64,000 bases of DNA from Candidatus Cloacimonadales bacterium (GCA_963662275.1 OY759316.1:3040001-3104000), one strand, 5' to 3'. Positions 46,170-64,000 are shown, counted from the stretch's first letter. A program made the numbers and translations. The notes: generated by a model from the letters alone, not told the origin.

Positions 46170-49100
46170 CTACTTCAAGAGTAGAATTTTTCGTACTTCT
46201 ACACACTCCCCTGCCTTCATTTTTACAAAATAGACTCCTGAAGGACAAGCTTTTCCAATGAGATTGATACCACTCCAAGTTGTCTGATAAATACCCGCTT
46301 TGTCATTGTTTTTATGAAAGGAAGCCATCAACTGACCTTTCACATTATAGATGGAAATCTCGACTTGGTTAGGGGTTTTTAATGAATAACGAATGGTTGT
46401 ATCTCCAATGAATGGATTCGGAAAGATGCTTTCAAGTCTTGTTAGTTCGGGTATGATTGGTGGTACATCCGGATTGTCATTCTGTTCAACAAAGATGGAA
46501 ACAGGTCCATGAAAACCACTGGTTCCATCCGTGTTTACATATTGAAGCCAATAGTATAATAGAACAGGAGCTTCGATTTCTTCATCCACGAATTGGTATG
46601 TCTGTTGGGTGGATGTATTCAAGGCTGCTACCATGATGTTCATATCCTCTGCCGTCTGCAGGGTATTCTCAGTGCTGCGTAAGATACGATAGCCAACCAA
46701 GTTCGTTTCTGATTGGGTAATCCAATTCAATTGGACATAATTCTGCTGAGTTGTAATAGCCGTGAATGAAGTCAATTCAACAGGAAGGGTCTCGTTTTCT
46801 GCACCAACAGTCCATTCAGAGAACTCGTTTGTATTCACTTGGATCATCCTGGGATTTAATAATGACACATCTACAGGAGTACCTACTGGCTGCCAGCTAG
46901 TGCCATTATACCGATACACTATCGCCTTGTTTTCTGGAGAAAATACATGCCCATTATCAGCAGTGGAGGGCCACACAAGTGTTAGTTGTGAAGTACCTGT
47001 AAATGAACCGTTAATTGTCCATTTCCGATGAATACCACTTTTCCCAAAAACGTCAACCGCCTGATCAAGATGAGTAGCCTGGAAACCAGTAATTTCCAGT
47101 CCGTTTGCCACATGAACACCAACTGCATCATTATTGAATCCTTTTATTCCAATTTCCTGGCTAACCGTTCCAAAAATCTCTGTATTCTGGTTCGTATTCA
47201 AAATTGCTGTTGGTTTCAATACCAAAGATGAAGAAGCCGTATTTAACTGTGAGTTGATTAGAAGCGTCACTGAGCTTTCCACATAGGCATTGGAATTAAG
47301 AGTAACAAGTATACTCGGTGAGATGATGATACTGTTGAGAATCCCAGAACTGGAAGGAATTTCATTGCCTGTGACCACAGTGCTCTGATAGAATAAATTC
47401 ACTGTTCCTTGCCATACAGGTTCCACATCCAATGCCCCAAGACCTCGATTGATTGTTGTGTTATCAATGAAAACGAGATACTGAGAGTTTGTCAGCTCTC
47501 CCTTGAGCAGGTAAAAAGCAGAATAGATATACACATAATCTGTTAATGTTGCTCCGTCAGCACGATCCAGTGTGAAATATCCCAACGTAACTCCGGAAAG
47601 TTCTAAGCCAGTACCCGCTCCTGAGATCGTCAATGATGAAGTCTGAGACCCTGTAAAACTTCCCGTTCCCATAGTGAGATCACCGGTTATCGACAGGCTG
47701 TTATTATTCAGATTCAATGATCCTGCTGTTAGATAAAGATCTTCAACAGTTAGACTTCCACCCATGAGCATTCCGCTTGGTCTGTCTAATACAAGTTCCT
47801 GAAGTGTAACTGACGGAACAGTAGCAGCCAATGCAGTGCCATTAATTGTCAGCTTGGCATCTGCTCCACCTGTCAGGCTTCCCATAAATTGGGTAATGAT
47901 TCCACCCACTGTTAATCTGTGAGAACTCAATAATAAAGCTCCCCTGTTTAAATTCAGATTCGTCGTGATAACATCCCCCGTTAAGGTACAGCCATTCATG
48001 CGACTAATCCCTAAAGTCCCCACTGTAAGGCCTCTCAAGTTAAAATTCAATCCATTGCCACCGATCAATAGGCTGGAAGAAGAATCCGTAATTAATGTAC
48101 CTAAAAATTCGCTCATGATCATGTTGATCGTTAGTTGATTAGCACCTACAGTAAAATGACCGCTGATCAAGTTTAAATTATTAACAGATACATTTCCAAT
48201 CATCGTACACCCACTTGCACGTGAAAGAGATAAATTTCCTAATGTGATTGCTTCCAGGCTGAATGTGGATACAGCACCACCTATCGTTAATGATGAACTG
48301 GTAGTTCCAGTCATGAGTGAACTACCTGTTTTCGTACCATTCATTAAAAGAGTACTCGAACCAATAGAAAGTCCACCGGAAGTGAGTGCAAGTGTACCAT
48401 TAATACTTACTGTCCCACTGATGGCAATGCCATTAGCACGGAGGACATTCAGATTGTTCAGCACAACAGATGGTAATGTTGTTTGAGGTGTGCTGATTGT
48501 TCCCCCAATTATGATGTTGGAAGAAGTACCTCCTGTTAAACTCCCACTTGTTGTATTAATGTAATCGGTAATCGTAAGTGTATTAGAGCTAATCGTTAAA
48601 CTACCAGATAGCAGATCAAGGGAAGTCAGTGATAATACGCCTCCCATTGTCGCCCCTAAAGGTCTGTTTAACGTCAGATTGTGAATACTGAGAGAAGCAG
48701 GAATTGCAAAATTTGCTGCTGTTCCACCAACTGTAATATCGGAACTGCTGCCGGCATTCAAGCTTCCGGAGCCGAAAGAAAGAGCTCCATTCAATGTCAG
48801 ACGATGACTTCCTACCGTAAATGCTCCTGATGTCAGTATCAGGTCAACGGTCGTGATATCGGCACCCATTGTAGCGCCATTACTCCTGTTTAATGTCAAT
48901 TGATTAAGAGTAATCGTTTCTATTGAGAAATTCAATCCGCTTCCACTGATGATCATATTTGAACTGGAACTGCCAACGATCAGGCCTGCTCCGCTTTTTG
49001 TACCTGACATGGTAAAAGTATGACCGTTAATACCCATATTCCCTGTCAAACTTAAAGTCCCGGTTACTGTAACGGCACCGCTTAGCGTAATGCCGCTTGT

Positions 49101-50579
49101 TCGGGAAACAGTAAGATTGTTCAGTGACACTGAAGGTAACCCTGTTGAAGCCCCGCTTCCTCCATAAGTAATATTAGAAGAAACTCCGCCTGTTAAAGTT
49201 CCGGAACCGGATACTGCACCATTGAGTGTTAGAGTATTTGAACCAATAGACAGCGGTCCATTCAATGCAAAAGTACTACCTACTGTTGTTGCACCTGAAA
49301 TGGATTTAGTTCCAGTTGAGGATATCGTCATGTTAGAATAATCAGTTCTCGCAGTCACTACTTGCGCTGAAGCCGAATTGTATTCAATTGTGCAACCACT
49401 CCAGAGCACAATTGAAGGACTATTTGTGCTGGAAACAGTTGTGGATGAAGTACCGGAAAAACCACTTGTATTAGCAGTTTTCAACGTTCCATAAAAGTTG
49501 AAGAGAGCGCTTGAACCCACACCCTTCAATTGATATGTACCTGCATCAAGAATACCTCTTTCATGGAATTGCATACTCGAACCCATTGATACATTATCTA
49601 CCAAAGTATAAGAAGCACCAGACCCGATGTCAATATTATGATGTGCTTGAGCATCATAAGTCAGATCACCAATACCAAAGTTTTTACCTACACCCGTCAA
49701 ATAATAGGTTGGATATCCACCATTAATGACGTTAACAGAATAGAAGAAACCCGCGGAATGCACAAAACTCCCGCCAATGTTATAAGTATTATAGGGCAGA
49801 GTATAGTTATCACGGTAAGTGCCATAAAATTGTCCACCACTGATGAGTAAATCACCCCCAATATTGTAAGTACAATATCCACCACCATTCGACCCATAAA
49901 AGATACCTCCATCCATCGTGATACTTCCACTCATATTGAAAGTATCATTAGCGCCACCATCAGAACCAATAAATGTTCCATTATGTACATAGATATTGGC
50001 AATGCTGAGAGTTTGGTCATCAGTCGTTTGACCACCCTCGAAAGTTCCACCATCAAGTTGCAATGTTCCTCTAACTTCAAAACCAGCAGTACTTCCAGTA
50101 CAATCTGCTATTCCTTGCTTCACAATCAGATTTCCATAGGATACCTGATCCTTGAATGTGATAGGATTATGGTTGAGAACAAAATTGCTTGTATCCTCGA
50201 GGTAACCATTACCACCCCAACCGAGATTACTATACGTGTCATTAGTAACTTCATAAGTACCACCGTTATTTACTCTGCCGGTAATCTGGTGATCAAACAA
50301 GCCGGTGATTATTTTGCCATTGTTTTCTATAATGACATAGGAATTTGAACCGCTGACCGTCCATTTTGCCGAAGCAATCATCACATCATAACCTTCGACG
50401 TAAAATACCTGGTTATCAGCAGTAAAATTGGATGGATGAGAACCGGAGTTGTTCCTGTTTGTCCACCAACTTGTCGTAAGGTTCACATTGAGACTGCCAC
50501 CGGAATAATAATTGGTTGCAAAAAGCAGGGTAAATGGACTTAAAATGAAAATAAGTAGAAACAAATGTGCAATTTTCAT
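46170..50579 (-). CDS. Large secreted Gly/Ser/Thr-rich beta-helix-like repeat protein with FlgD/T9SS-like C-terminal tail
   Basis: Signal peptide; repeated L..LTL.R..G..M.G modules; LPVELTSFTA, FPNPF, IYNVKGQ, SGVYF tail. Confidence 0.85.
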   Translation of the reverse strand: MKIAHLFLLIFILSPFTLLFATNYYSGGSLNVNLTTSWWTNRNNSGSHPSNFTADNQVFYVEGYDVMIASAKWTVSGSNSYVIIENNGKIITGLFDHQITGRVNNGGTYEVTNDTYSNLGWGGNGYLEDTSNFVLNHNPITFKDQVSYGNLIVKQGIADCTGSTAGFEVRGTLQLDGGTFEGGQTTDDQTLSIANIYVHNGTFIGSDGGANDTFNMSGSITMDGGIFYGSNGGGYCTYNIGGDLLISGGQFYGTYRDNYTLPYNTYNIGGSFVHSAGFFYSVNVINGGYPTYYLTGVGKNFGIGDLTYDAQAHHNIDIGSGASYTLVDNVSMGSSMQFHERGILDAGTYQLKGVGSSALFNFYGTLKTANTSGFSGTSSTTVSSTNSPSIVLWSGCTIEYNSASAQVVTARTDYSNMTISSTGTKSISGATTVGSTFALNGPLSIGSNTLTLNGAVSGSGTLTGGVSSNITYGGSGASTGLPSVSLNNLTVSRTSGITLSGAVTVTGTLSLTGNMGINGHTFTMSGTKSGAGLIVGSSSSNMIISGSGLNFSIETITLNQLTLNRSNGATMGADITTVDLILTSGAFTVGSHRLTLNGALSFGSGSLNAGSSSDITVGGTAANFAIPASLSIHNLTLNRPLGATMGGVLSLTSLDLLSGSLTISSNTLTITDYINTTSGSLTGGTSSNIIIGGTISTPQTTLPSVVLNNLNVLRANGIAISGTVSINGTLALTSGGLSIGSSTLLMNGTKTGSSLMTGTTSSSLTIGGAVSTFSLEAITLGNLSLSRASGCTMIGNVSVNNLNLISGHFTVGANQLTINMIMSEFLGTLITDSSSSLLIGGNGLNFNLRGLTVGTLGISRMNGCTLTGDVITTNLNLNRGALLLSSHRLTVGGIITQFMGSLTGGADAKLTINGTALAATVPSVTLQELVLDRPSGMLMGGSLTVEDLYLTAGSLNLNNNSLSITGDLTMGTGSFTGSQTSSLTISGAGTGLELSGVTLGYFTLDRADGATLTDYVYIYSAFYLLKGELTNSQYLVFIDNTTINRGLGALDVEPVWQGTVNLFYQSTVVTGNEIPSSSGILNSIIISPSILVTLNSNAYVESSVTLLINSQLNTASSSLVLKPTAILNTNQNTEIFGTVSQEIGIKGFNNDAVGVHVANGLEITGFQATHLDQAVDVFGKSGIHRKWTINGSFTGTSQLTLVWPSTADNGHVFSPENKAIVYRYNGTSWQPVGTPVDVSLLNPRMIQVNTNEFSEWTVGAENETLPVELTSFTAITTQQNYVQLNWITQSETNLVGYRILRSTENTLQTAEDMNIMVAALNTSTQQTYQFVDEEIEAPVLLYYWLQYVNTDGTSGFHGPVSIFVEQNDNPDVPPIIPELTRLESIFPNPFIGDTTIRYSLKTPNQVEISIYNVKGQLMASFHKNNDKAGIYQTTWSGINLIGKACPSGVYFVKMKAGECVEVRKILLLK

Positions 50580-51139: not shown

Positions 51140-51296
51140 TCTTATGGACATTTTGCATTGGTAGTATGATGAAACAACTGATGGAAGATTATCATTGATT
51201 GAAGATTGAAGAGTTGTCATGTTCTTCTTTCTTCATCTGAAACTATTCCCTATTCCCTATTCCCTTCTGCAATACCGGTAAGTCATGCTTTTCAGA

Positions 51297-51400
51297 TTGT
51301 AGCACTGACTTCAGGCGGTAATCTTAAAACCTTGAGTATTCATCACATATAGCTTATAAATGCAGTAAGTACTCATAACCTCCTGAAGTAAGCGCTACAA
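51297..51400. repeat. GTAG-type inverted repeat pair (REPIN-like hairpin)
   Basis: TTGTAGCACTGACTTCAGGCGGT...ACCTCCTGAAGTAAGCGCTACAA, 23-bp arms with 3 mismatches. Confidence 0.7.
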
Positions 51401-51708
51401 AATTCTGAACCTTTTCGCTGTACCCTGTATGCTGTCACCTTCTGCAGATCATTCTTCTCGAGAAGTCACACTTCATTCAACTAAAAGCTAATAACTATAA
51501 ACTAAAAGTTATCAGATTCTTCCCTCTTCATCTACAGATTACATTACATTCTAATACAATCCTGTCAACTTCAACCTAAGTCGCAAAGAATGCGATCTAT
51601 CCACCTCTTGAAAAGAGGCGTTGCATCTGCTCTGAGCTATTCCCTATTAGCTAATCCCTATTCCCTTCTGCAACATCTGAACCTGTAAGCTGTTCCCTGT
51701 ACGCTGTC

Positions 51709-51995
51709 ACCTTCTGCAACATTCTTCTCGAGAAGTCATGCTCAAATACATTGAAGATTTAAGAGTTAAGATTGAAGATTTGTCAAACTCTTCTTTCTTT
51801 ATCTAAACCTATTACCTAATACCTAAAACCTAGAACCTTCTGCAACATTCTTCTCGAGAAGTCATGCTCAAATACATTGAAGATTTAAGAGTTAAGATTG
51901 AAGATTTGTCAAACTCTTCTTTCTTTATCTAAACCTATTACCTAATACCTAAAACCTAGAACCTTCTGCAACATTCTTCTCGAGAAGTCATGCTT
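51709..51995. repeat. 126-bp tandem duplication, each unit carrying a truncated CRISPR repeat core
   Basis: ATTCTTCTCGAGAAGTCATGCT at 51721, 51847 and 51973; identical intervening sequence. Confidence 0.9.
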
Positions 51996-52283
51996 TTCAA
52001 TAAGATGCTCTGAAATGTTTCAAAATTCAACACCTTAAGTCTCAATTCTTCTCGAGAAGTCATGCTTTTCAATTCCAAAAGAAGTTCCAAAGTTATGATC
52101 ACAATGTTTTGTCTCAATTCTTCTCGAGAAGTCATGCTTTTCAATACGCAAAGGTTCCAATGGCCGTAGTTTTCGTCATCAGTCTCAATTCTTCTCGAGA
52201 AGTCATGCTTTTCAATAAGATATCAACAAATCTTCAAGGTGACAACATGTCTCAATTCTTCTCGAGAAGTCATGCTTTTCAAT
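51967..52283 (-). CRISPR. CRISPR array: 5 repeats of 35 bp (ATTGAAAAGCATGACTTCTCGAGAAGAATTGAGAC on -), 4 spacers of 32, 36, 37 and 37 bp
   Basis: Repeats at 52249-52283, 52182-52216, 52111-52145, 52039-52073 and a degenerate terminal repeat at 51967-52001; 3' ATTGAGAC tag and internal CTTC-TCGA-GAAG hairpin. Confidence 0.95.
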
Positions 52284-52457
52284 ATAGGTATGCTGGGAGG
52301 TAGATTTGATGCGGGTCGAATATGGCATTTTCGGCAACCTCATCAAAATGGAGTGGTTTTATCACGCTGAAGGGGGAGGTTGCAGAAAATATAGATAACT
52401 TCTTATGATATATGCAGTTATGTTTTAACATATTCTAACCTCCTAATTTATAGACAG
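52284..52457 (-). promoter_or_regulatory. CRISPR leader
   Basis: Non-coding, between cas2 and the non-degenerate array end; 14-bp inverted repeat at 52328-52341 / 52376-52389. Confidence 0.7.
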
Positions 52458-52718
52458 TTATGCGATAATCACGAATTCACTGTGCGCATTCATCGCCACA
52501 GTTTTTTCACTACAGCCTCGGCATAAATGAAAAACATGGATGATGCCATTCCCTTCATTCAGCTTTTCCAGATTCCTGAGTAATTTCTTATATCCCCACG
52601 CATCAATGTCAACTAAAAAAACGGATTCCTGGATGCGTCTACCTTCTTTTTCCAAGGCTCTGCTGACACGACCTCGAATACGGTCGCTGCTGATGTCATA
52701 TGCTATGATCTTTCTCAT
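52458..52718 (-). CDS. cas2: CRISPR-associated Cas2
   Basis: IIAYDIS...R..RV...L...G.RIQESVF; TAATG overlap with the cas1 stop. Confidence 0.92.
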   Translation of the reverse strand: MRKIIAYDISSDRIRGRVSRALEKEGRRIQESVFLVDIDAWGYKKLLRNLEKLNEGNGIIHVFHLCRGCSEKTVAMNAHSEFVIIA

Positions 52719-55399
52719 TATTTCATCCTGAAATGTTTGTAGGGAAGTCCCAATTTCAAACAGGTAACCAGGTTTCGACAAGCTCCATCGATTATCTCTA
52801 CGTAAGTTCGCTGTCCTAAATCAGGTAGTGTTATGCTTTCATTCAGCATCCATTCAAATCGATGTATGAATTCCCGGAAACCTTCATCATTCATATAGGT
52901 AATTGTTTTCCCGGATGCCGGTTTATTCTCAAAGCAGGAAGCTGTCACAAGTTTCAATCTGATTACTGCGATAACAGCCCTGTCTGCGAGAAAGCGAAAA
53001 GATTCTAAAACATCCGAAGCCAAGGCATACTGTGCTCCATGCCTTTCATGGAACAATCCAATATCAGGATTGATACCTGATGCCATTAAGGATTCTGCAA
53101 TACGATTGTATAAAAGAGTATATCCGAATGAAAGCATGGCATTTACCGGTCCCTGTGGTGGGTGATAAGATCTGCTGTCAAATTCAAAGGGATCGACCAA
53201 AGGTTTGAATCTTTCAAAATACACTGCTGCCGTTGCACCTTCCTTGCCTCGCAATGCTTCGATATCAGATATGCCTTCGAGAGAATCTTCCCACTCCTTC
53301 AGTTTGGGTTCATCAACCTGGTTTTGTTTTAACAGAGTTCGCTGATTATGTATTTTCGCTGCTACCAGGTCACGGACATACTGAATCCGATAATTACTGA
53401 AGTCTGTATCATACTTGGGAAAGATGTCTTTGATCTGCTCCAGGCTTCTTTGAGGATAGAATCCGCCAATCGTCTTTCCGGTTACCGTCATAAATGTGAT
53501 TGGTTTCTGTCCTTCCAAAGCTGTTTTAATGACATTCGCAGAAACACGCGGTCTTCCAATGATGATAATTCTCTGCACATGTGACCAGGGGATCTTGCGT
53601 TTCATCTTGTCTGATTCAATGACAAGATCATTTCCTTCAGACCGTACCGAAGTCTGATAAAAACTCACATAGACTGGAACACCCTGAATCTCTGACTGAT
53701 TGAGAGCCGGTTTCCATAAATCCGGTTCATCCGGTTCCACTTTTACTATCTTCTCATAGCCTTTAGGCGTAATGTGGAAACCAAGATAATCATATTCTGA
53801 ATCCGGTTCTATCTGCATGATCTTATCTGAATTCAGTTTCAGGTTCAATTTTAGCAGCGAGGTTTCCACCACTTCATTGATTTTGTCGTCACTCTTTGGC
53901 GATAAGATCACAAAGTCATCTCCAAAACGAATTGGTTCCCAATCATGACGACTGATCTCATGATCCCAGCAACTCATGAATATATTTGATAAAACAGGTG
54001 AAATAGGCATTCCCTGCGAAAGACCCTTTGCCGTTTGTGAGAGAAATAACTCTATACATTCGATAATAGGATCATTTCGTAACAGTCCTTTTAAGAGGTT
54101 CTGCAACAATACTCGGGGAATCGAAGGGTAGAATTCATCAATATCCCCCTTCATTCCATATTTGAATCCCTGGTTGTATAGACTTTTAATCGCTTTCACA
54201 GCCTTATAGGTACCGTATCCCTTTCTATAGGCAAAGGAACCGATTGCCAGCACAGGATCAATGGCATCATCAAGAATGGAGGCAATCGACTTGCATACCA
54301 ATCGATCGGCAAGATTCTGCACTTCCAATAGACGTACATCACCATTATCTTTTGTTACTTCATAGGAGAGAATGCTACCAGGTTTGTAGGTTCTTTCATT
54401 GATCTGCTTCTGCAAATCAGAGATGAATGGTGAATCATTTTCTGCAATGTCCTTGTATGTTAAGCCATCTTCACCGGCAGAAGAATCCTTCATTTCAGAC
54501 AGGCAGAATTGCAATTGCTCTTTCGATATTGCTCTGTTCAGTAGATTTGTTGAAGTTTTCCAGGTATGAATACAATTATCTCTCTGCAATCCTGATATCT
54601 GGTAAGAATTGAGACCAAAGCTCCGATTCTTGCCAAAACCAATATACTGACCGGCTGTCAGTAGAAAACGCTCCAACTCTGCCATATCTCCTGTTATTTG
54701 AATGGAACCAAGGAACCCGCCCATAGCACTTGTGTGGGGAATATCTATCCAGAATAGAATGACATTTGAACCTGATAGACTACTTGTTTCAGGTGAATAG
54801 TCAGAAATATCTAATTCAGCAGCTATCTTAGCTAAAAATTGAGGAATGGAAAACCAATCCATATCAAAGAATTTATGCTTTGCTGTCTTGAAGCCTTCCG
54901 GTCTGTTCAATCTTAAAGGCGTTTGAAAGATAAGCGTTATATTCTGTTGTTCTTTCAGAGATTCAACTTCCTGCAAAATACTCTTCTCATCAAGAGGTAT
55001 CCAACTCAGAGGATTATTTCCCACTAAGCAGTAATGCTTCACAAAATGCAGGCTGGAACGTGTGCCGAAATGATCATGATACTTGAGGTCAAGACCTTTG
55101 CCATCGTTCTTTTCCAAAACAGCAACCAGCTTCTCAACATACTGCTTCACCGGCTCAGGAAAAGAAAGAATCACACCTATTTTATCACCCGTTGTATAAT
55201 TACGAATTCCATTCTGAGCAGGAAATACTCTCAGCCCAGTACCATTCGGGTCTTTCAATCCTACCTGTGACAGCGCATTCCAGATAAAGCCAGCCCAATG
55301 TATCCCAGCATAAAACGGCAGATTCGTAATGTCACGAATACATTCAAATTCGAGAGCAAGGAAGTAGGTGGGGGGGAAGGTCATAACACTTACATCCAC
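52718..55399 (-). CDS. cas1: Cas6-reverse transcriptase-Cas1 fusion
   Basis: Cas6: FQTPLRL, GGFLG, GQYIGFGKNRSFGL. RT: SAGEDG, SFAYRKG, GDIDEFYPSI, GLSQGMPISPVLSN, RFGDDF. Cas1: LRGKEG, NAMLSFGY, GLFH, ASDVLESFR. Confidence 0.92.
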   Translation of the reverse strand: MDVSVMTFPPTYFLALEFECIRDITNLPFYAGIHWAGFIWNALSQVGLKDPNGTGLRVFPAQNGIRNYTTGDKIGVILSFPEPVKQYVEKLVAVLEKNDGKGLDLKYHDHFGTRSSLHFVKHYCLVGNNPLSWIPLDEKSILQEVESLKEQQNITLIFQTPLRLNRPEGFKTAKHKFFDMDWFSIPQFLAKIAAELDISDYSPETSSLSGSNVILFWIDIPHTSAMGGFLGSIQITGDMAELERFLLTAGQYIGFGKNRSFGLNSYQISGLQRDNCIHTWKTSTNLLNRAISKEQLQFCLSEMKDSSAGEDGLTYKDIAENDSPFISDLQKQINERTYKPGSILSYEVTKDNGDVRLLEVQNLADRLVCKSIASILDDAIDPVLAIGSFAYRKGYGTYKAVKAIKSLYNQGFKYGMKGDIDEFYPSIPRVLLQNLLKGLLRNDPIIECIELFLSQTAKGLSQGMPISPVLSNIFMSCWDHEISRHDWEPIRFGDDFVILSPKSDDKINEVVETSLLKLNLKLNSDKIMQIEPDSEYDYLGFHITPKGYEKIVKVEPDEPDLWKPALNQSEIQGVPVYVSFYQTSVRSEGNDLVIESDKMKRKIPWSHVQRIIIIGRPRVSANVIKTALEGQKPITFMTVTGKTIGGFYPQRSLEQIKDIFPKYDTDFSNYRIQYVRDLVAAKIHNQRTLLKQNQVDEPKLKEWEDSLEGISDIEALRGKEGATAAVYFERFKPLVDPFEFDSRSYHPPQGPVNAMLSFGYTLLYNRIAESLMASGINPDIGLFHERHGAQYALASDVLESFRFLADRAVIAVIRLKLVTASCFENKPASGKTITYMNDEGFREFIHRFEWMLNESITLPDLGQRTYVEIIDGACRNLVTCLKLGLPYKHFRMK

Positions 55400-55435
55400 T
55401 ATACTATATCATGTTCAAAGCTTGAATACAAGTCG

Positions 55436-55987
55436 TTATTTCTTTTTTGTTGGCATGATTTCGTAAATTGCAACCAATTGACTTAAAAGGCGAATAGATG
55501 TATTCACTGTATCGCAATAGGGTTGAACAGAAAAAATAGCCTGATGTTCATCCGTAACTCTTATCGGATGGGGACTATAAATAATAATTGGTATGTTATC
55601 ATTTCCGGTTTTTGCATCTTGGGCGATATCCTGATAAATTTTGTTCGGACAATCTATGTCGTAATCTATAATATAAATAGATTTCCGATTTCCGGTTCCT
55701 AAATAATCAGTATAATCTTTTCTTGAATATATCTCATCTTCAACTTTAAAAAGCCCATTTTCTTTTACCGTTTTCAATAATTTAGAGACATCACGTGTGT
55801 CATTTAATCCAAAAAAAACGACTTTCCGGTTGCTGTTTCTCCAAAATCTGGTTTTCTTAAAGAAAAATAAATATATGAATTCTCTAATTCCAAAACCAAC
55901 CCCCATTAAGCTGAAAACCATAGCAATGACTTCCCAGATAAGATTACCAACAAAAAAAGACTCGATCAATTTAACAACGTGTAACAT
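55436..55987 (-). CDS. Membrane-anchored Rossmannoid/REC-like protein, candidate type III ancillary effector (Cam2/NARF-like)
   Basis: One N-terminal TM helix; alpha/beta domain RKVVFFG, ENGLF, IYIIDY, PIIIYSP, VNTSIRLLSQL; lies between csx1 and cas6-RT-cas1. Confidence 0.55.
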   Translation of the reverse strand: MLHVVKLIESFFVGNLIWEVIAMVFSLMGVGFGIREFIYLFFFKKTRFWRNSNRKVVFFGLNDTRDVSKLLKTVKENGLFKVEDEIYSRKDYTDYLGTGNRKSIYIIDYDIDCPNKIYQDIAQDAKTGNDNIPIIIYSPHPIRVTDEHQAIFSVQPYCDTVNTSIRLLSQLVAIYEIMPTKKK

Positions 55988-56137
55988 GCATTCCTCCATT
56001 TAGTAAGCACATTTTTTCTATTTGTCGAGTTAGTAACTAGGTTAAGCTGTCTGTATTTTCCAAAATACTGAGTCTCTCCTCATGCAAGTCACTAGATTCA
56101 TAGTTCAATCAGAATAACTTCAATTCCTTCTTATCAA

Positions 56138-57346
56138 CTAAAACTGTTTCATGATTTGAATGCTCTTTTCAATATACTGTTCAAGTTTAGTGATGTATGT
56201 GCCTAATTGTACGTTCTTATTGGGAAGACAGTGAGCAATTTTGTTACGGATTTTAGATACTTCAGATCGAATCTTAAAAAGTTCCTTACATCCTGGGTCT
56301 TCGCTCAATGCAATAATAATGGCTTTAATTGTTTTTGTAACAAATTTACCTTCATATTTTGAATTTACTTTAAGATAAGTCAATATTCTATCTTCTATTG
56401 CACATTGCAACGCTAAGTAAGATAAGCCGTAATTATGTGTTTTGGCATAGAATTGAGATAAATTCATCAAGAATTGAATTTCATCTATAGACGAAAAATC
56501 TTCAAATGTCTGGTTGATTATATGGTTCAAATTATCTTGTAACACATCTGAACCTGTATCCGGTAACGGTGAATAATTACAGATATTTGGTTGTAATGCC
56601 ATCAAATATCCTAATGAATATGCTTGGCTAAAATTCCTGTACTCATTTCTTAATTTGCTATTTGATTTGTAATGCTGATTGATTAAGTCGGACAACGGAT
56701 GTGGATTCCCATATTCATGGAAATAGTTTAAAGCTCTGCTCCACTGCCCAAATTCAAATAATGAAAGCAGATTAACGATTGGTTTGATAGTCTCTTTCAC
56801 TTCCACCATACCATAGTATATGCCTGATAAGACGATTTTTTTACCAATAGCTTTCATATAATCGATCATTACGTAAGACATTAAAGCTAAAGAACGAAAG
56901 GAATGTGTAATATCAAGATAGATTTCGTCGCCATCCTGTATCTCTTTAGCAGCTTCAACAAATAAGCCGAAATTCTCTCTGATTTCAACATCGTTAATAC
57001 CATATTTAATTAAGAAACAACATGAGCTCAAATCTGATTCCAAATATGTTCGTATTTGTTCAGCTATTTTGCATATATCAAATTGATTTACCAGGCTATC
57101 TTTCTGTTTCAGGCATAGATTTTGTTTAAATTCTTCATCGACACCCCCGAAAGCCTTATATGCCCAATCCCAAATAGAACCAGTTGTTCCAAAAAGAAAA
57201 ATACGATCTACTCTGAGCCCAGTTGACAAGACTTTCGCAACAGAAGTATCTTCTTGAATTATTCCATTAAACTCATATTTCGCTGTTCTGTATCCACCAG
57301 CATCTTTATTACCTGTTCCGAGATTTGAAATTAGAACTTTTGACAA
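56138..57346 (-). CDS. csx1: CARF-HEPN ribonuclease, Csx1/TM1812 family
   Basis: ISNLG, Y..A.Y, GTTGS.W, LDITHSFRS (CARF), RNKIAH (HEPN RxxxxH). Confidence 0.88.
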   Translation of the reverse strand: MSKVLISNLGTGNKDAGGYRTAKYEFNGIIQEDTSVAKVLSTGLRVDRIFLFGTTGSIWDWAYKAFGGVDEEFKQNLCLKQKDSLVNQFDICKIAEQIRTYLESDLSSCCFLIKYGINDVEIRENFGLFVEAAKEIQDGDEIYLDITHSFRSLALMSYVMIDYMKAIGKKIVLSGIYYGMVEVKETIKPIVNLLSLFEFGQWSRALNYFHEYGNPHPLSDLINQHYKSNSKLRNEYRNFSQAYSLGYLMALQPNICNYSPLPDTGSDVLQDNLNHIINQTFEDFSSIDEIQFLMNLSQFYAKTHNYGLSYLALQCAIEDRILTYLKVNSKYEGKFVTKTIKAIIIALSEDPGCKELFKIRSEVSKIRNKIAHCLPNKNVQLGTYITKLEQYIEKSIQIMKQF

Positions 57347-57379
57347 AGTACCACCTCTTCATAAAGATCAGTTCATATT

Positions 57380-59605
57380 TTATTCAAATTCAATAGGTTT
57401 CTTAAGTATTTCTCTACCTCTTTCTCTAAAACGTTTCAAAGGCATATAGTCGGTTTCAGAATTTGAAGGAGCATTTTCATAATCCAACATTCGTTTTAGG
57501 CTTAAATACCTATCCGTAGCATTCCAGAGATCATTTGTCTGAAGATTTAGTTTTGCTTTCATGAAATCACAAAAAGCCATAACATACTGTTGTACATCTG
57601 GTTCTTGCCCTATACCATTGAATTCTGAAAGAAATGTACCATATCTTTCAAAAGGTTTTGAAAGATACAAAGCAGGTATTATTTTCACAGATCCCAGTCC
57701 GTAAGGTTTTGCCATCCCAAGCTTATGACAACAGCCTACAGGCAGATTTAATGCAAATAACAAAGAACCAAGTTCGACATCTGAGAGATTTTCAAACCTG
57801 ATTTTACCCGAAAATTGACAGCCTGGATTTAAAGGCTGGATAGAAGTGTATAGTTTGGGTTTATCATCAACGTTTACGTGGCTTTCTTCCCACTGAACCT
57901 TTGGTCTATGCCAGTACATTTTATAACCTCTAATCTGAGCATTATCACTGTTATAGTTCTTTAATCCAACCAGCTTTGTGCCATTAATTGAAATAGGTCC
58001 AGGTTGTTTCAAATACAATTGGAAGGATGTAGGTTTGGGACTTGAAAGAATTTTTGGATGTGATGGTTCGAAACACCCTTGATCAGTATCTTTATCAATA
58101 ACAGCATCTTCTACAAAAACTCTTCCTGGTAGTGAAGGTAATTTAGATGATTTACCATCAGCATCAATTGTACCAAACATGAACTCAGGAAAGTCATAAT
58201 AATTAGAATCATTAGTATGAATGGAATCACTAATTTTTTTGTTATAAGGTATTCTCATCAGACCAGTATGTCCAATAGAGATGATATTATTATCATCCAA
58301 ACAATAAAAGCAAGGAATTCGATTATGTGCAATACCCTCTCTAAGATCAATCCCCTCTTTGCGGGTAATATCATTACCATATTTTGTCACAGCATTTGTT
58401 GCATTGATTCTGGTCTCAGATGTATCTTCAGCACCGATAACCCAATGCATCTGTTTCCCTCTTCTTTGGTTACCAACCCAACCGGTAAGAATTAGAAAAC
58501 CCTCTGAATATCCAGACGGAGTCGTGGTAGTTTTTGTTTTTAATTGAATATCTTGTACTTTTTTATGCCATAAATTAACGCTATGACTTTCATCTGTATC
58601 AGGATCCATTGACATACTTTTATAGTAAATTGGAATAACTTTTCTGGATTTGATTAAGCTAGAATATTTTGAGTTTTCTTTGTATTTTCCTCTATCAGTA
58701 TCCCATACAGCCATCTTATCTGTAATAATTCCGCTTGATATGACATCTGATTCTTCAATCCGGCACACTTCAGTAGCCGGTTGAATGAAATAATCCTTTC
58801 CTTCTTTGAATAAATAACCACCCAGAGATTCAACAGAATAGCCTTTCACAGCATTTCCACTTGTCATGATATGAGAATACAAATCATTGTATTCGAGAGA
58901 ACTGTCCTTGAATGCTCTAAAATATAGATATTTATCATCAATTTGAGATAATTTACCATAAGATATCATGTTCACCATACTTCTAAGCATACCACGAATA
59001 GACGAACCTGGTATCTTGAACAAGCCATTTCCTGGTGCATAATGCTTACTAATAGTCCAAAGAAATTCGCGTTTTCTCCTCAGTACATCATCACCACTAT
59101 TCTCAATGTCGGCCAAAGTTATTAATTCTGACTGAGTCATTGTTCGACGTATATATAGAGGAGTCTTATTTTCAATATTAACTTCTATGTAGCCAGTGAG
59201 TTTAGTTGAATCATATCTACTAAAATCAATGTCCCTTCGGTCTGGTGAAACCACGTGCCCTGTATATGGTACAAAATTGTAAGGTGCTGTTGCGGTATAA
59301 TAACGGTTAAGTTGTTCCCTTGAGGTGGGAGAATCCTGATTTTCAGAAATAGCTTCATTGTTATTCTCTGATTTTTCTTCACCAATAATTACTTGATCGG
59401 GAAGGCTAAAATAATACCAGATATTTCTATCAAAATCATATGTAACTTGAAACTCAGCATTATTAATTCTATCAAAAACAGGATGTTTAGTAATTTCTTT
59501 TGATTCTATCCTACGTGGCTTACTCCACTCAGAACTAACAAGTTCAAAGATCTTTCTACCATTGTTCTGTGATATTATTAAAGTCCCTGGTTTTCTCCCT
59601 TCCAT
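57380..59605 (-). CDS. Type III-D Cas7 with large insertion (TIGR03986-like RAMP)
   Basis: APYNFVP, IPGSSIRGMLR, LSSPKPTSFQLYL, RGYKMYWH, RFENLS..ELG.L, KLGMAKPYGLGSV. Confidence 0.88.
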   Translation of the reverse strand: MEGRKPGTLIISQNNGRKIFELVSSEWSKPRRIESKEITKHPVFDRINNAEFQVTYDFDRNIWYYFSLPDQVIIGEEKSENNNEAISENQDSPTSREQLNRYYTATAPYNFVPYTGHVVSPDRRDIDFSRYDSTKLTGYIEVNIENKTPLYIRRTMTQSELITLADIENSGDDVLRRKREFLWTISKHYAPGNGLFKIPGSSIRGMLRSMVNMISYGKLSQIDDKYLYFRAFKDSSLEYNDLYSHIMTSGNAVKGYSVESLGGYLFKEGKDYFIQPATEVCRIEESDVISSGIITDKMAVWDTDRGKYKENSKYSSLIKSRKVIPIYYKSMSMDPDTDESHSVNLWHKKVQDIQLKTKTTTTPSGYSEGFLILTGWVGNQRRGKQMHWVIGAEDTSETRINATNAVTKYGNDITRKEGIDLREGIAHNRIPCFYCLDDNNIISIGHTGLMRIPYNKKISDSIHTNDSNYYDFPEFMFGTIDADGKSSKLPSLPGRVFVEDAVIDKDTDQGCFEPSHPKILSSPKPTSFQLYLKQPGPISINGTKLVGLKNYNSDNAQIRGYKMYWHRPKVQWEESHVNVDDKPKLYTSIQPLNPGCQFSGKIRFENLSDVELGSLLFALNLPVGCCHKLGMAKPYGLGSVKIIPALYLSKPFERYGTFLSEFNGIGQEPDVQQYVMAFCDFMKAKLNLQTNDLWNATDRYLSLKRMLDYENAPSNSETDYMPLKRFRERGREILKKPIEFE

Positions 59606-59606
59606 C

Positions 59607-60173
59607 TTACTCCTCCCCGCTTTTAACAACAAAATCAAGAAAACGGCAATCATTGTAACTGAGCTGCCCATTGTCCCATTGTTCAAGATAATTACGAGTT
59701 TTTACAGCATACCTAGTTTCAAGAGTAACAGAAGTATTTTCGATAAGAGGCATTATCAGCTCAAATCCTCTTTGTTCAAAAATCCTAATGAAATCTGAAC
59801 CAGTGCTCTCTGAGTTAGTACCAAGCAGTATCTGTTCAACATCCTTGTAATATACTTCTTCACCCTGGGTATCAAAGCGTTTTCTTCCAAACAGTTTATT
59901 GGTTATAATGCTATCTATATTTGTTATACTTACTCTCCAAAAAAGCAATTCTTCATCCAGGTTGAAGATGCGTAGCTTCTGTATGTAGTCGAATACAAAA
60001 GCAGTGCTATCATGAAAAGAAAATCTCCCTGTTTGATATCTTCCGATTAGAAGCGCATTGTCTAGATATGCAACCACAAAATATTCTTTGTCCTGATCAA
60101 GAGAATCTTCAATGTCCTTCATGTTGTTTGCTAACAATGATGAAACACTAGTTTTTATTTTCAGTTCTAACAT
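59607..60173 (-). CDS. csx19: Csx19 (type III-D)
   Basis: LRIFN...ELLFWR, Q.L.G, RNY, D.RF; lies between cas7-cas7 and cas7-insertion. Confidence 0.8.
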   Translation of the reverse strand: MLELKIKTSVSSLLANNMKDIEDSLDQDKEYFVVAYLDNALLIGRYQTGRFSFHDSTAFVFDYIQKLRIFNLDEELLFWRVSITNIDSIITNKLFGRKRFDTQGEEVYYKDVEQILLGTNSESTGSDFIRIFEQRGFELIMPLIENTSVTLETRYAVKTRNYLEQWDNGQLSYNDCRFLDFVVKSGEE

Positions 60174-61530
60174 CTGAATCCTCCTTGTAACCATATGTTT
60201 GCAATCTGGGAAGATAGGGGTTATTATCAGTACTCAGCTTCTGTAACGAAATGACTTTTTCATTGAGAAACTCCATATCGCAACTATTTTCAATTGAGTT
60301 CGAGTCTATAGCAATAGTCTTGCCTTTCCAATTGATCTCTGCTTTGAGTCCTTGAAGCACACCTCTTCCAATGCTTTTCTCTCCACCAATCGGAAGCATT
60401 CGTGTCCAGAGGTCTTTCAGGAGTAAAAGAGCTAAGCCAGCATCCTCTTCATGAGCATCCTTAATTTCTAATTGAATTGTTAGGTTCTTCTGGGTTTTGT
60501 TTTCCAGTTTATTAAATATGGGCATTGTTTCCAACAAAGCACCTTTAATTGTTCCACCTGTAAATTGATCGATCTTAATACGTGTTTGCTGTTCCATTGA
60601 AACAGAATCAGCATCTAAAACTTCTTCTCTCACAATGAATCTAGAGGGAATTGCATAAATGCTGACATCTTTTTTATCTGAAACATATCCAAAAAGATCG
60701 TTTATACAATTTTCAACAACTATTGGATTAATAGACAATGTATTTAGAATTTTGCGTGCTCTTGCCCTTAATACACCTTTCAATGAAGAACCTGGAATAA
60801 TTGGATTTCCGTTTGACATCAATTGCACATTATCAGGAGCTGAAGAATCATGAGGGTAAGTCCTAACAATGAGTGAATTCACAAGACTAAAATCAGCACA
60901 TATCTTAAAATTTGTATTTGTGGAATGATGAATCAACTGAGATGTAATATCCAAACCCGGAAGCTTCGGACTAAGTAGCCAAGCTATTGAATGATTTTTT
61001 TCAGAAAGATTATATTGATGTATCGTTAAGGTATTAACTCTTAACAAACCTAAACCTTTACTTGTATGTGCCCCAACACTCATTCCCGATAATAGTAGAT
61101 ATTGAATATTGCTCAAAATAGGCTTCATATCTAAATCTTTTTCAACCTTGTCGAATTCCATTTGAAGTTCGAAGCTAATTCCTGGCTCCAGAATTTGATA
61201 ATCAAATAAACCTCCATCATCAACTAACCCCGATTGATGAACAATTTTTATGCCCTCTCGATGCGATATACTGAAATTCGTTCCAATTAGAGTAAGGTCT
61301 GAACACCTGACACGTGACTGATTTAATTTACTTCCCCATATTGATAGATTCATTGCAACATTATCTAATTCTGAGTATAACTTTCCACTAAATGAAGATG
61401 CAGGGATATAGGGTTTACCCTCACTATCTATGATAATATCGCTGTTAGTATCTTCGGATTCACCAGAACCAATACATAGGGGAGTAGTTAATTCCAAATT
61501 CGCTTTAAGTAGGTACTTAATCACTGACAT
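60148..61530 (-). CDS. Cas7-Cas7 double RAMP (Csm3 group 7)
   Basis: Two RAMP units: PLCIGSG/YIPASS/VGAHTSKGLG and IPGSSLKG.LR/IDQFTGG/IGGEKSIGRG. Confidence 0.88.
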   Translation of the reverse strand: MSVIKYLLKANLELTTPLCIGSGESEDTNSDIIIDSEGKPYIPASSFSGKLYSELDNVAMNLSIWGSKLNQSRVRCSDLTLIGTNFSISHREGIKIVHQSGLVDDGGLFDYQILEPGISFELQMEFDKVEKDLDMKPILSNIQYLLLSGMSVGAHTSKGLGLLRVNTLTIHQYNLSEKNHSIAWLLSPKLPGLDITSQLIHHSTNTNFKICADFSLVNSLIVRTYPHDSSAPDNVQLMSNGNPIIPGSSLKGVLRARARKILNTLSINPIVVENCINDLFGYVSDKKDVSIYAIPSRFIVREEVLDADSVSMEQQTRIKIDQFTGGTIKGALLETMPIFNKLENKTQKNLTIQLEIKDAHEEDAGLALLLLKDLWTRMLPIGGEKSIGRGVLQGLKAEINWKGKTIAIDSNSIENSCDMEFLNEKVISLQKLSTDNNPYLPRLQTYGYKEDSDVRTENKN

Positions 61531-62990
61531 AATTTTCCCCCTTGTGCTTGCTTGATCCTATTTCGTAATACAGAGAAATAGACTTTTAGATATTCTCTCT
61601 CAAGTTGAACAACACTCAAGGTAGTTATTGAGATGCCAATTATCGGAGCAAGACTACTGATGTTAGTATCACGGGACAGAATTGATTCCAAATGATCGTT
61701 GAGCCTTTCTGATGTGCTTTCTAGGTGATTCATTACACCTACATTTTTAATATATGTGTTTGATAACTTATCCTTAGCATCTTTCCTAAGATGCTGAAGA
61801 TTTATGTGGAAATTGTTCCCAAGTGCAAAACCTTCTAATCTGCCAACTAAGGATTTTGATAGACTTTGATCTGTAAGATCAGTGTCCGTTGCATCCTTCA
61901 ATGCATTATTATGAATCTCGGATAAAATGTAATTTTCCACTATCCTTCTACATATATCCTTTGCTAATTCACTATTGATACTAATTTGTGTTGTTGGATG
62001 GTTTGATAGTGCTTGTTGATTATATTCATATATTTGAAGGGGCTGAAACGAAACCATACCAAATCCAACATTACGTCTTTCTCCAATTCCTGATTCTTCT
62101 ATTTGCTGCCAATTAGGAGGAAGTGAGTTAAGATAAAAAACCGAACCTGCACTGAATGCATTCTCAGATGGAAGAGACGTTTTCCAAACACCAAGCATTC
62201 CCTGAATTTGTTTTACCTGAATCATACTATGTATAATTTTTGTGTTAAGATGCTTTTCCATTTCCTCAATAGATGTCACAGAGAAGCCATTATCATTGTA
62301 GATTATTGTATCAGATAACAGTGTCATTGAGTATGGCGGTGTTAGCTCTTCAGAATTAACCTCTGGTGTAATATCTCCATACGAGAGGATAGCTTTACCA
62401 TATTGGGCTGTTTTTGATCTTCCAATTGAGATTTCACTTGAATCAGAAATAAGACTTTTTATAAGATTGAGATCATTTTCCTTTCCTGTGATGTAACCTT
62501 TGAAGATTTGACCAGGTGATAAGGCTTCATATGTTAATATAACGCCTTGTTGGGAAATACAAGTTTTTTTGTTCCTTTCATGATGAAAAGCTAGTTCAGT
62601 TCTGAAAGGAATAAAAGTGATATCATTTCCCGAAATTATACTATAAGGTGAACATGAGACATATTTGGTTGCACTATCTTTTTCATTATATTTGAACTCA
62701 TTGATAATCACATCATTGTTGTTTTTTGGATGCTTGATGATCAATGGAGTCGGTTGCGTCAGCTTTCCATGATGTGAAATCAATAGATTCTTAAAAACAA
62801 TATCACCATGGACGAATAACCTAAGAAATTCATGATCTGGAATTCTAGATTTAAGATAGTTATAAGCGAAAACCCCCATCATTGTACTGCCAGGAATATG
62901 ATCATGCGTTGATGTAAGAGTGGCATCCCCTGACCGACGAGAAATAATAACACTGCTAACTGTTTGAATGGATATTTCAAGCTTGTGCAT
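61521..62990 (-). CDS. csx10: Csx10/Cas5-group RAMP with probable C-terminal Cas11-like helical extension
   Basis: HIPGST, IGRSKTAQYG, GIGERRNVGFG, then ~170 aa helical region (LSKSLVGRL). Confidence 0.75.
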   Translation of the reverse strand: MHKLEISIQTVSSVIISRRSGDATLTSTHDHIPGSTMMGVFAYNYLKSRIPDHEFLRLFVHGDIVFKNLLISHHGKLTQPTPLIIKHPKNNNDVIINEFKYNEKDSATKYVSCSPYSIISGNDITFIPFRTELAFHHERNKKTCISQQGVILTYEALSPGQIFKGYITGKENDLNLIKSLISDSSEISIGRSKTAQYGKAILSYGDITPEVNSEELTPPYSMTLLSDTIIYNDNGFSVTSIEEMEKHLNTKIIHSMIQVKQIQGMLGVWKTSLPSENAFSAGSVFYLNSLPPNWQQIEESGIGERRNVGFGMVSFQPLQIYEYNQQALSNHPTTQISINSELAKDICRRIVENYILSEIHNNALKDATDTDLTDQSLSKSLVGRLEGFALGNNFHINLQHLRKDAKDKLSNTYIKNVGVMNHLESTSERLNDHLESILSRDTNISSLAPIIGISITTLSVVQLEREYLKVYFSVLRNRIKQAQGGKLCQ

Positions 62991-63642
62991 AAATTGCCTC
63001 CAATTCCTTAACAGCTAAGTCTTTCAAATTTGCACTGCCTATTATTTCTAAATTAATAGATCCTAATCCATGATTCCTTGTAGTACCCATTCGATCAGCA
63101 TATAGACTTACAAGACCTAACAGATACTCGATATCAGGATTTGTATTATCAATCGTCAATTTACCAACAAATTCATGCTTTTTGTTCACAACTCTCATGG
63201 TTCGGAGTGAGTGTTCTTTTGCTATACCTGGTTTCTTTTCATCAATCGCTGTCTGCTTTCTTAAAGAAGTAAAATATCCTAACACATTCTGAGAACTAAC
63301 CAGATTGCTTAATGAAGAAGCATATCTGATTTCTTCCCTGAGTTTTTCATAATCGGGTAAGTATAGATTTGTTACATTGAATGTTACAACAGGAGTATTC
63401 TTCCCAACATCTCCAAAAAGGTCATCTACATTTGTCAATTGTATTGATTTAGGTAAGATAATATGAAACTGTTCCACTAAATCTTGGCAGGCATTTCTTA
63501 GTATGCCTTTGACCCTCTTTGCTGGAATATAGGGTAAGCCAAGATCATCAAAGACAACATCTGTATCAATCACATTACCACTACTAAGAGCTGATCCTAT
63601 AAGAGTATCAGAAATCAATTTGATGGATATAACGTATTCCAT
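62977..63642 (-). CDS. Cas7/Csm3-like RAMP
   Basis: DTDVVFDDLGLPYIPAKRVKG.LR, TAID, SLR, MGTTRNHGLG. Confidence 0.88.
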   Translation of the reverse strand: MEYVISIKLISDTLIGSALSSGNVIDTDVVFDDLGLPYIPAKRVKGILRNACQDLVEQFHIILPKSIQLTNVDDLFGDVGKNTPVVTFNVTNLYLPDYEKLREEIRYASSLSNLVSSQNVLGYFTSLRKQTAIDEKKPGIAKEHSLRTMRVVNKKHEFVGKLTIDNTNPDIEYLLGLVSLYADRMGTTRNHGLGSINLEIIGSANLKDLAVKELEAIYAQA

Positions 63643-63654
63643 ACACTCCTCCAT

Positions 63655-64000
63655 TTAGGGATAAGTAATCATATCAATGAGTTCAATAATGTCACCGTAA
63701 ATAGTATGATGGTTAGAATCAAAAAGACTTTTTGAGAATATCTTATCAAATCCAACATTATACAATTCATCACCTCTATTTCTCATAATATCTAGAAACT
63801 CTTCTTGTTCCTTTGTGGTTTGATAAAGAACATCTCTGAGTTTCATGATGCGCGAAGACGACCATTTATCTTGAAATTTATCTGCATTTTTTTGAAGAGA
63901 GTTGATATCAGTGATTGAATAGGGTTTTGAGGATAATCTCATACATTCAGAGTTTATAAATTCATTCTTTCTAATTGACTCGATATCAGAAAGGGTGGAA
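63655..64000 (-). CDS. cas10: C-terminal fragment, probably Cas10 (runs off the window)
   Basis: Frame open to the window edge (..IESIRKNE..LSSKPY..WSSSRIMKLR..DIIELID); first in the III-D gene order; Palm/HD motifs not visible. Confidence 0.6.
   Translation of the reverse strand, partial: STLSDIESIRKNEFINSECMRLSSKPYSITDINSLQKNADKFQDKWSSSRIMKLRDVLYQTTKEQEEFLDIMRNRGDELYNVGFDKIFSKSLFDSNHHTIYGDIIELIDMITYP

Follow-up and report, generated by a model that had tools for sequence, protein, structure and literature searches.

Does the small gene between csx1 and a fusion of cas6, reverse transcriptase and cas1 genes (cas6-RT-cas1), in the type III-D CRISPR-Cas locus of a Candidatus Cloacimonadales bacterium, encode a second effector of cyclic-oligonucleotide signalling beside the Csx1 ribonuclease? 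The locus lies on the minus strand of a stretch of 64,000 nucleotides (GCA_963662275.1 OY759316.1:3040001-3104000), hereafter the window, and a second effector is what the original prediction had proposed. Our analysis indicates that the protein is probably a nucleotide-activated membrane effector, and this reading is supported by its family, by the cyclase and Cas10-system genes that adjoin its relatives, and by the GGDD motif of the cognate Cas10. To our knowledge, no arm of cyclic-nucleotide immunity is less well understood than its membrane effectors, and we know of no flavodoxin-like or receiver-like (REC-like) domain of this kind that has been shown to sense or bind a nucleotide.

The architecture outlined in the original prediction (183 amino acids, one transmembrane (TM) helix, an alpha/beta domain in which no CARF motifs were seen, and co-orientation within the cas operon) held up on closer analysis. 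The open reading frame (ORF) counted from the upstream, first ATG spans 55436-55999 and encodes 187 amino acids. The second ATG (55987) is the likelier start because GGAGGA, a good Shine-Dalgarno sequence, precedes it by 5 nucleotides. A 28-nucleotide translation-start region, AAATGGAGGAATGCATG (repeat family D9), is common to this gene (55976-56003) and to the single-domain cas7 of the same locus (63631-63658), which likewise makes 183 amino acids the better start call; at both genes, the first ATG would add a spurious N-terminal extension, MEECM. The protein contains one hydrophobic stretch (residues 16-34, Kyte-Doolittle peak 2.03), followed by KKTRFWRNSNRK, a basic segment next to the membrane; by the positive-inside rule, this suggests that the C-terminal domain is cytoplasmic. 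The gene adjoins csx1 150 nucleotides upstream and cas6-RT-cas1 36 nucleotides downstream, all three being co-oriented, and no terminator-like site was found between them in 55200-57600. Pfam, NCBIfam and PADLOC CARF models gave no match to the protein at E ≤ 0.01. A ThsA-Macro match was disregarded, being marginal (E 0.009) and without an aligned stretch.

The reading frame is a real gene and not a chance ORF, because 24 proteins matched its product at E ≤ 1e-3 in a phmmer search of 1.84 billion representatives, and because the family profile scores the window protein at 1.5e-50. All but one of these proteins are 127-204 amino acids long; P0010, a 373-amino-acid repeat protein with a short local match only, was dropped, and the 23 remaining relatives were aligned (alignment A1). 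A word-indexed search retrieved only the window protein itself when that single sequence was the query and 34 proteins when the family profile was used. tblastn searches of plasmids with the window protein and with the relative P0020 gave no match, and the ESM Atlas returned, as leads only, unnamed clusters of hypothetical proteins of about 175 amino acids (scores 0.92-0.94).

The window protein matches the PADLOC model PDLC01057, "C3a59, trans-membrane", with an E-value of 2.7e-12 (residues 20-178 of the 187-amino-acid ORF against profile positions 14-159 of 167), as do 22 of the 23 aligned relatives. The model for a CBASS (an antiphage system that signals through cyclic oligonucleotides) "Effector 1TM", PDLC00664, is matched by 11 of the same 23 (best E 6.2e-15); the window protein itself gave no match to it at E ≤ 0.01. 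Because one relative (locus L013, genome G348) strongly matches both models, at 6.4e-65 and 9.6e-52, we conclude from the profile comparisons that the C3a59 and CBASS 1TM entries stand for a single family. Of this catalogued, experimentally uncharacterised family the window protein is a divergent new member, C3a59 being the same as CBASS 1TM and probably also the same as the type III protein Cam2.

Within its own phylum, a family-profile scan detected the gene in the genome of the window and in no other (1 of 232 genomes), and this rarity suggests that it was acquired horizontally together with the locus. Two partial matches in the same phylum were not counted, both being marginal (E 6.9e-4 and 9.3e-4) and one carrying three stops. 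The same rarity, together with the very divergent, long-branch sequence of the protein, would also suit a decaying or silent hitch-hiker without a present function in this locus. Against this, the frame is intact behind its good ribosome-binding site, all polar residues conserved in the family are kept, and the fold is predicted with high confidence, so that we regard decay as very unlikely.

We compared the genomic contexts of 23 homologue loci, 4 from genomes and 19 from metagenomes, the latter collected with a tighter alignment (A3); a metagenome scan with the relative P0039 alone found nothing. The family is placed almost exclusively beside CD-NTase (cGAS/DncV-like nucleotidyltransferase) or Cas10-system genes. 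A CD-NTase cyclase gene is immediately adjacent in 18 scanned loci, and two further relatives lie in cmr operons, so that the homologues are linked to nucleotide-signalling defence, as the original prediction requires. This 18:2 ratio of CBASS to type III is not a population estimate, because two sets of queries were used to retrieve the loci, and contigs resembling the candidate phyla radiation (CPR) predominate among them. All four genome loci (L006, L007, L012 and L013) carry the CD-NTase gene directly downstream. In L006 and L007, both from CPR genomes, the relative is a protein of 175 amino acids, 35% identical to the window protein, whose gene overlaps the start of that for a 444-amino-acid CD-NTase (PDLC00785, E about 1e-178; Pfam SMODS and AGS_C). 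A family-profile scan of 401 genomes of that CPR phylum found the gene in three, the starting genome included; the two newly found loci both adjoin a cyclase, and one also has E2. Among the metagenome loci, the cyclase lies immediately downstream in 14 (L014-L020, L022-L024, L028, L029, L031 and L032), some of these cyclases ending at contig edges and that of L023 being split in two, and E2 is also present in six (L014, L015, L017, L018, L028 and L029). The type III-B relatives are found between cmr6 and cas6 (L026) and directly after cmr3-cmr4-cmr5-cmr6 (L027). The remaining loci comprise L030, which has the same layout as L031 and was left unscanned, and L021 and L025, whose contigs are too short to judge context.

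Seven of the CBASS loci (L006, L007, L013, L020, L022, L024 and L031) are two-gene operons, in which the relative is the cyclase's only partner and hence the only candidate effector. With no other partner for the cyclase, detection of the signal and action on the cell must both fall to the relative, and with both roles in one protein a nucleotide-activated membrane effector is the most economical reading. The same operons bear on an alternative in which the protein binds the Cas10 signal but does not kill: tethered to the membrane, it would buffer or regulate, for instance as a sponge by which the threshold for Csx1 is set, or would act as a membrane recruitment site. Such a role would suit a small protein with a single TM helix that co-occurs with a complete effector, Csx1; it would, however, leave the two-gene operons without an effector, and we consider it unlikely. 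The neighbourhoods also weigh on a second alternative, that the protein is an accessory of the adaptation module formed by the adjacent Cas6-RT-Cas1 and Cas2 and has no part in signalling. The short distance from its stop codon to the start of cas6-RT-cas1 speaks for this; yet of the 21 homologue loci whose neighbours could be read, none has RT-Cas1 alongside; the genes found there are cyclases or cmr genes, which makes an adaptation role highly improbable.

Several other features of these neighbourhoods were observed. A divergent LexA-like repressor, with an S24 peptidase and a LexA DNA-binding domain, is encoded directly upstream of the effector-cyclase pair in two loci (L006:2436-3062 and L007:2-775), a 208-amino-acid ORF occupies the matching position in L014 and L015, and restriction-modification genes flank several of these loci; the LexA-like neighbour hints at DNA-damage-controlled CBASS expression. 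The metagenome loci L030 and L031 (24% GC) are open only under genetic code 25 (TGA=Gly), and in both the effector-cyclase pair interrupts a type I restriction-modification locus, with the methylase gene on one side and the specificity gene on the other. In L027, one of the type III-B loci, a 171-amino-acid ORF without a PADLOC match (L027:4663-5178) follows the family gene and overlaps its end, and may encode a further accessory.

We then placed the copies on a maximum-likelihood tree of 42 rows, comprising the window protein, 20 locus proteins of known or unknown context and 21 search hits, with fragments and P0010 left out. Both type III-B copies are nested in a clade of 22 rows with 100/99 support that contains 13 CBASS-linked copies. 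The window copy falls outside this clade, on a long branch (2.21) whose exact position is unsure, and the type III label needs two changes on the tree. Because the type III-B copies nest inside the clade and the window copy lies outside it, the tree indicates that the family entered type III loci on at least two occasions and has crossed between them and CBASS loci more than once. Both settings are also reported for NucC and TIR-SAVED (PMC11229360).

AlphaFold2, run on the alignment of 23 sequences, gave a confident model of the window protein (mean predicted local distance difference test score 92.3, predicted template modelling score 0.80), consisting of a long helix (residues 16-52) followed by five strand-helix units. 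In this model, the domain has an all-parallel topology that is both flavodoxin-like and CheY-like. The best structural matches of the predicted fold are receiver domains, and no CARF chain is present among the 50 structural matches listed. Foldseek found no match to the fold in the PDB at E ≤ 1e-3. For one relative, P0044, B12-binding domains score as well as receiver domains in structure comparison. Two relatives weakly match "Mem_04", a model that PADLOC describes as a possible highly diverged CARF.

These structural matches favour a further alternative, namely that the protein is a canonical two-component receiver and takes its phosphoryl group from a histidine kinase. Although the (beta-alpha)5 fold is shared with receiver domains, the Response_reg model (PF00072) matched neither the window protein (E ≤ 0.01) nor any of 11 relatives (E ≤ 1), and a search of PDB sequences with the family profile found no REC domain. 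At the end of strand 3, a position assigned from secondary structure and not from residue-level superposition, the family has a Gly (83% of 77 sequences) and the conserved Tyr Y109 (96%), and no conserved, potentially phospho-accepting Asp. The domain is therefore CheY-like in topology but not a demonstrable REC homologue. Moreover, no histidine kinase gene was seen among the ORFs of the window's CRISPR locus, and we give the two-component reading almost no weight.

Across the family, conservation centres on a small set of residues. From 82 collected sequences, removal of fragments below 140 amino acids, proteins above 210 amino acids and duplicates left the 77 distinct ones, in which N51 (99%), R54 (95%), Y109, N162 (95%) and R166 (100%) stand out, F80 and P133 also being conserved; the window protein retains all five of the former. 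On the secondary-structure map, the conserved residues belong either to the juxtamembrane linker or to the C-terminal end of strand 3 or 5, and the face that they mark is the one occupied by the active site in receivers. We propose the corresponding face of the modelled domain as the putative ligand site.

These observations are consistent with a model in which a single TM helix anchors a cytoplasmic flavodoxin-like (REC-like) domain, forming a self-contained sensor-killer. Upon meeting target RNA, the type III-D complex would have its Cas10 make an oligoadenylate signal, which the REC-like domains may bind where the five conserved polar residues lie, on the face that the juxtamembrane linker makes up together with the C-terminal ends of strands 3 and 5. 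Binding could shift the oligomeric packing of the domains such that the TM helices perturb or open the membrane; the cell would then depolarise and stop growing while Csx1 cleaves RNA in parallel.

The most likely ligand is cyclic tri-adenylate (cA3), with cyclic tetra-adenylate (cA4), shared with Csx1, as the alternative. cA3 is a ring made by both CD-NTases and Cas10, and a family that shuttles between these enzymes would be expected to read a product that the two have in common. Among solved structures, the partner cyclases are closest to PaCdnD (6p82/6p8j/6p8u) and EcCdnC (6p80), with E-values from 4e-14 to 6e-4. Both enzymes make cyclic AAA (cAAA) (PMC8096243), which agrees by analogy, as weak evidence, with the cA3 ligand predicted for Cam2. 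Weighing against cA3 is the neighbouring effector, as Csx1 is treated as cA4-activated by Hoikkala et al. (PMC11229360). Either the two effectors draw on different ring sizes from this one Cas10, or the divergent window member has shifted to cA4. It is conceivable, if rather doubtful, that the family is a portable sensor-killer cassette reading the cA3 common to CD-NTases and Cas10, and that the Cas10 of this locus drives both a cA3 membrane effector and a cA4-dependent Csx1; a dual-signal type III arrangement of this kind is the exception in the survey of Hoikkala et al. (PMC11229360).

The surrounding locus is a complete type III-D CRISPR-Cas locus (Table 1), with the type III-D set of Cas10, Csx19, Cas5-IIId, Cas7-2x and Cas7 with insertion. 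Read from the genome beyond the window, the whole cas10 gene (L002:655-2079) encodes 474 amino acids, and the protein matches a type III-D Cas10 model of 462 positions over its full length (E 7.4e-113). Its GGDD motif, whose integrity beside the gene was a point to be checked in the original prediction, is intact at residues 270-273, and an HD dipeptide is absent from the entire protein. Csx1 carries DITHS at residue 145 and RNKIAH (R-x4-H) at residue 367. The true start of the Cas7 with insertion is probably downstream of the listed TTG. Under a published subtype scheme (PMC13294483), the presence of Cas7-2x would make the locus III-Dv-like.

Table 1. The effector candidate and the type III-D locus around it; coordinates are counted from the first nucleotide of the window.
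Feature	Coordinates	Strand	Basis or remark
1TM + REC-like protein gene (C3a59 / CBASS 1TM effector family; Cam2-like)	55436..55987	-	183 aa
Predicted TM helix, residues 16-34	55886..55942	-	Kyte-Doolittle hydropathy; AlphaFold2 helix 16-52
Predicted flavodoxin-like (REC-like) (beta-alpha)5 domain, residues ~53-180	55448..55831	-	AlphaFold2; structure matches
cas10, 3' end (last 114 codons)	63655..64000	-	continues beyond window
Single-domain Cas7 (RAMP)	62977..63654	-	profile matches, including PADLOC
Cas5 of type III-D (Csx10-like)	61521..62990	-	PDLC02090, E 4.2e-52
Cas7-2x, two RAMP domains	60148..61530	-	PDLC02111, E 2.5e-96
csx19 (type III-D)	59607..60194	-	TIGR03984, E 3.5e-26
Type III-D Cas7 with large insertion	57380..59686	-	PDLC02114, E 6.5e-132
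csx1 (CARF-HEPN RNase)	56138..57346	-	PDLC01826, E 3.7e-87; TIGR02221; DxTHG motif
cas6-RT-cas1 fusion	52718..55399	-	Pfam Cas6, RVT_1, Cas1
cas2	52458..52781	-	profile match
Short CRISPR array: 4 good + 1 degenerate repeat, ~35 nt each, spaced 67-72 nt	51967..52291	.	

Another CRISPR array, larger than that of the window and with about 25 repeats (L002:3306-5073), lies about 2.3-4.1 kb past the right end of the window, upstream of cas10. The palindromic core of its repeat differs from that of the window array (CTTACCGGTAAG vs CTTCTCGAGAAG), the changes being compensatory and the stem kept. Direct repeats of 126 nucleotides and longer adjoin both arrays (window 51197-51994 and L002:2307-3281); each block contains a CT-rich unit and then a partial CRISPR repeat (..ATTCTTCTCGAGAAGTCA..), and the blocks look like degenerate or duplicated leader-repeat junctions. 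Further out, a 455-amino-acid reverse transcriptase with a YADD motif, resembling a group II intron maturase, is encoded about 8 kb upstream of cas10 (L002:10272-11639), and a 1469-amino-acid secreted repeat protein with a C-terminal sorting-domain-like tail (window 46170-50579, minus strand) is encoded just downstream of the region of the short array.

Collectively, our analysis unifies C3a59 with the CBASS 1TM effector, places type III copies within CBASS copies and offers a residue-level hypothesis for the sensor site; it also records a III-Dv-like locus in which a family member accompanies Csx1 and a short Cas10. A unified family in which type III copies nest within CBASS copies narrows the candidate ligands to products of both enzyme classes. 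The locus provides a concrete test case, being a compact III-D system whose Cas10 is short and which encodes Csx1 beside a 1TM/REC-like protein; in the latter, N51, R54, Y109, N162 and R166 can serve as mutation targets. Should the doubtful portable-cassette reading be true, this would be a dual-signal type III system, in which the membrane effector responds to cA3 and the Csx1 RNase to cA4.

Among known systems, C3a59 goes back to Shah et al. 2018 (RNA Biol, PMC6546367), whose cluster 59 has seven members (example Nos7107_2826) labelled "trans-membrane" and linked to type III subtypes A, B and D, with no function stated in the entry. Its members are likewise proteins of about 170 amino acids with an N-terminal TM helix, located beside type III cas genes; they are catalogued there without fold, ligand or mechanism, and the window copy is a divergent member. 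The CBASS 1TM effector has the same family and architecture, whereas the window copy adjoins cas genes instead of a CD-NTase; that class is listed but not described in the literature found (PMC12480259). Cam1, Csx23 and Cap1 are cA4-activated type III membrane effectors that combine TM helices with a cytosolic nucleotide sensor, are oligomeric and depolarise the membrane, providing a template in which the TM bundle opens once an oligomer has bound a single ring (Cap1: PMC12642688). The same sensor-plus-TM logic is proposed for the window protein, but these effectors are described with two or more TM helices instead of one, and their sensors are a CARF domain (Cam1), a unique tetrameric domain (Csx23) and a CARF-like mixed sheet with DUF4579 (Cap1), unlike the predicted all-parallel flavodoxin-like domain. 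Cap1 (2TM + CARF-like) was rejected as a relative, its sensor being a mixed five-strand sheet plus DUF4579 (PMC12642688).

A further parallel is Cam2, which the original prediction had named together with "TM-NARF" proteins. The NARF label was not found in print, nor, in the literature searched, in connection with CARF, type III or cyclic oligoadenylate; the resemblance to Cam2 stood. In that literature, Cam2 in the CRISPR sense appears only in Hoikkala et al. 2024 (PMC11229360), where it is found in 26 type III loci without a kinase, is modelled as a trimer, and has an N-terminal TM helical domain and a REC-like domain overlaid on PDB 3lua. Its predicted cA3 binding derives from loci that also contain NucC (one) or SAVED-CHAT (two), that is, 3 of 26 (PMC11229360), whereas the neighbour in the window is Csx1. 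The survey excluded loci with a Cas10 below 500 amino acids (PMC11229360), a cut-off under which the 474-residue Cas10 described here falls. The window locus is likewise type III, with a GGDD Cas10 and no histidine kinase found, and the window protein, compared at the level of published description, fits every architectural feature of Cam2 (TM plus REC-like), which makes it a likely member of Cam2.
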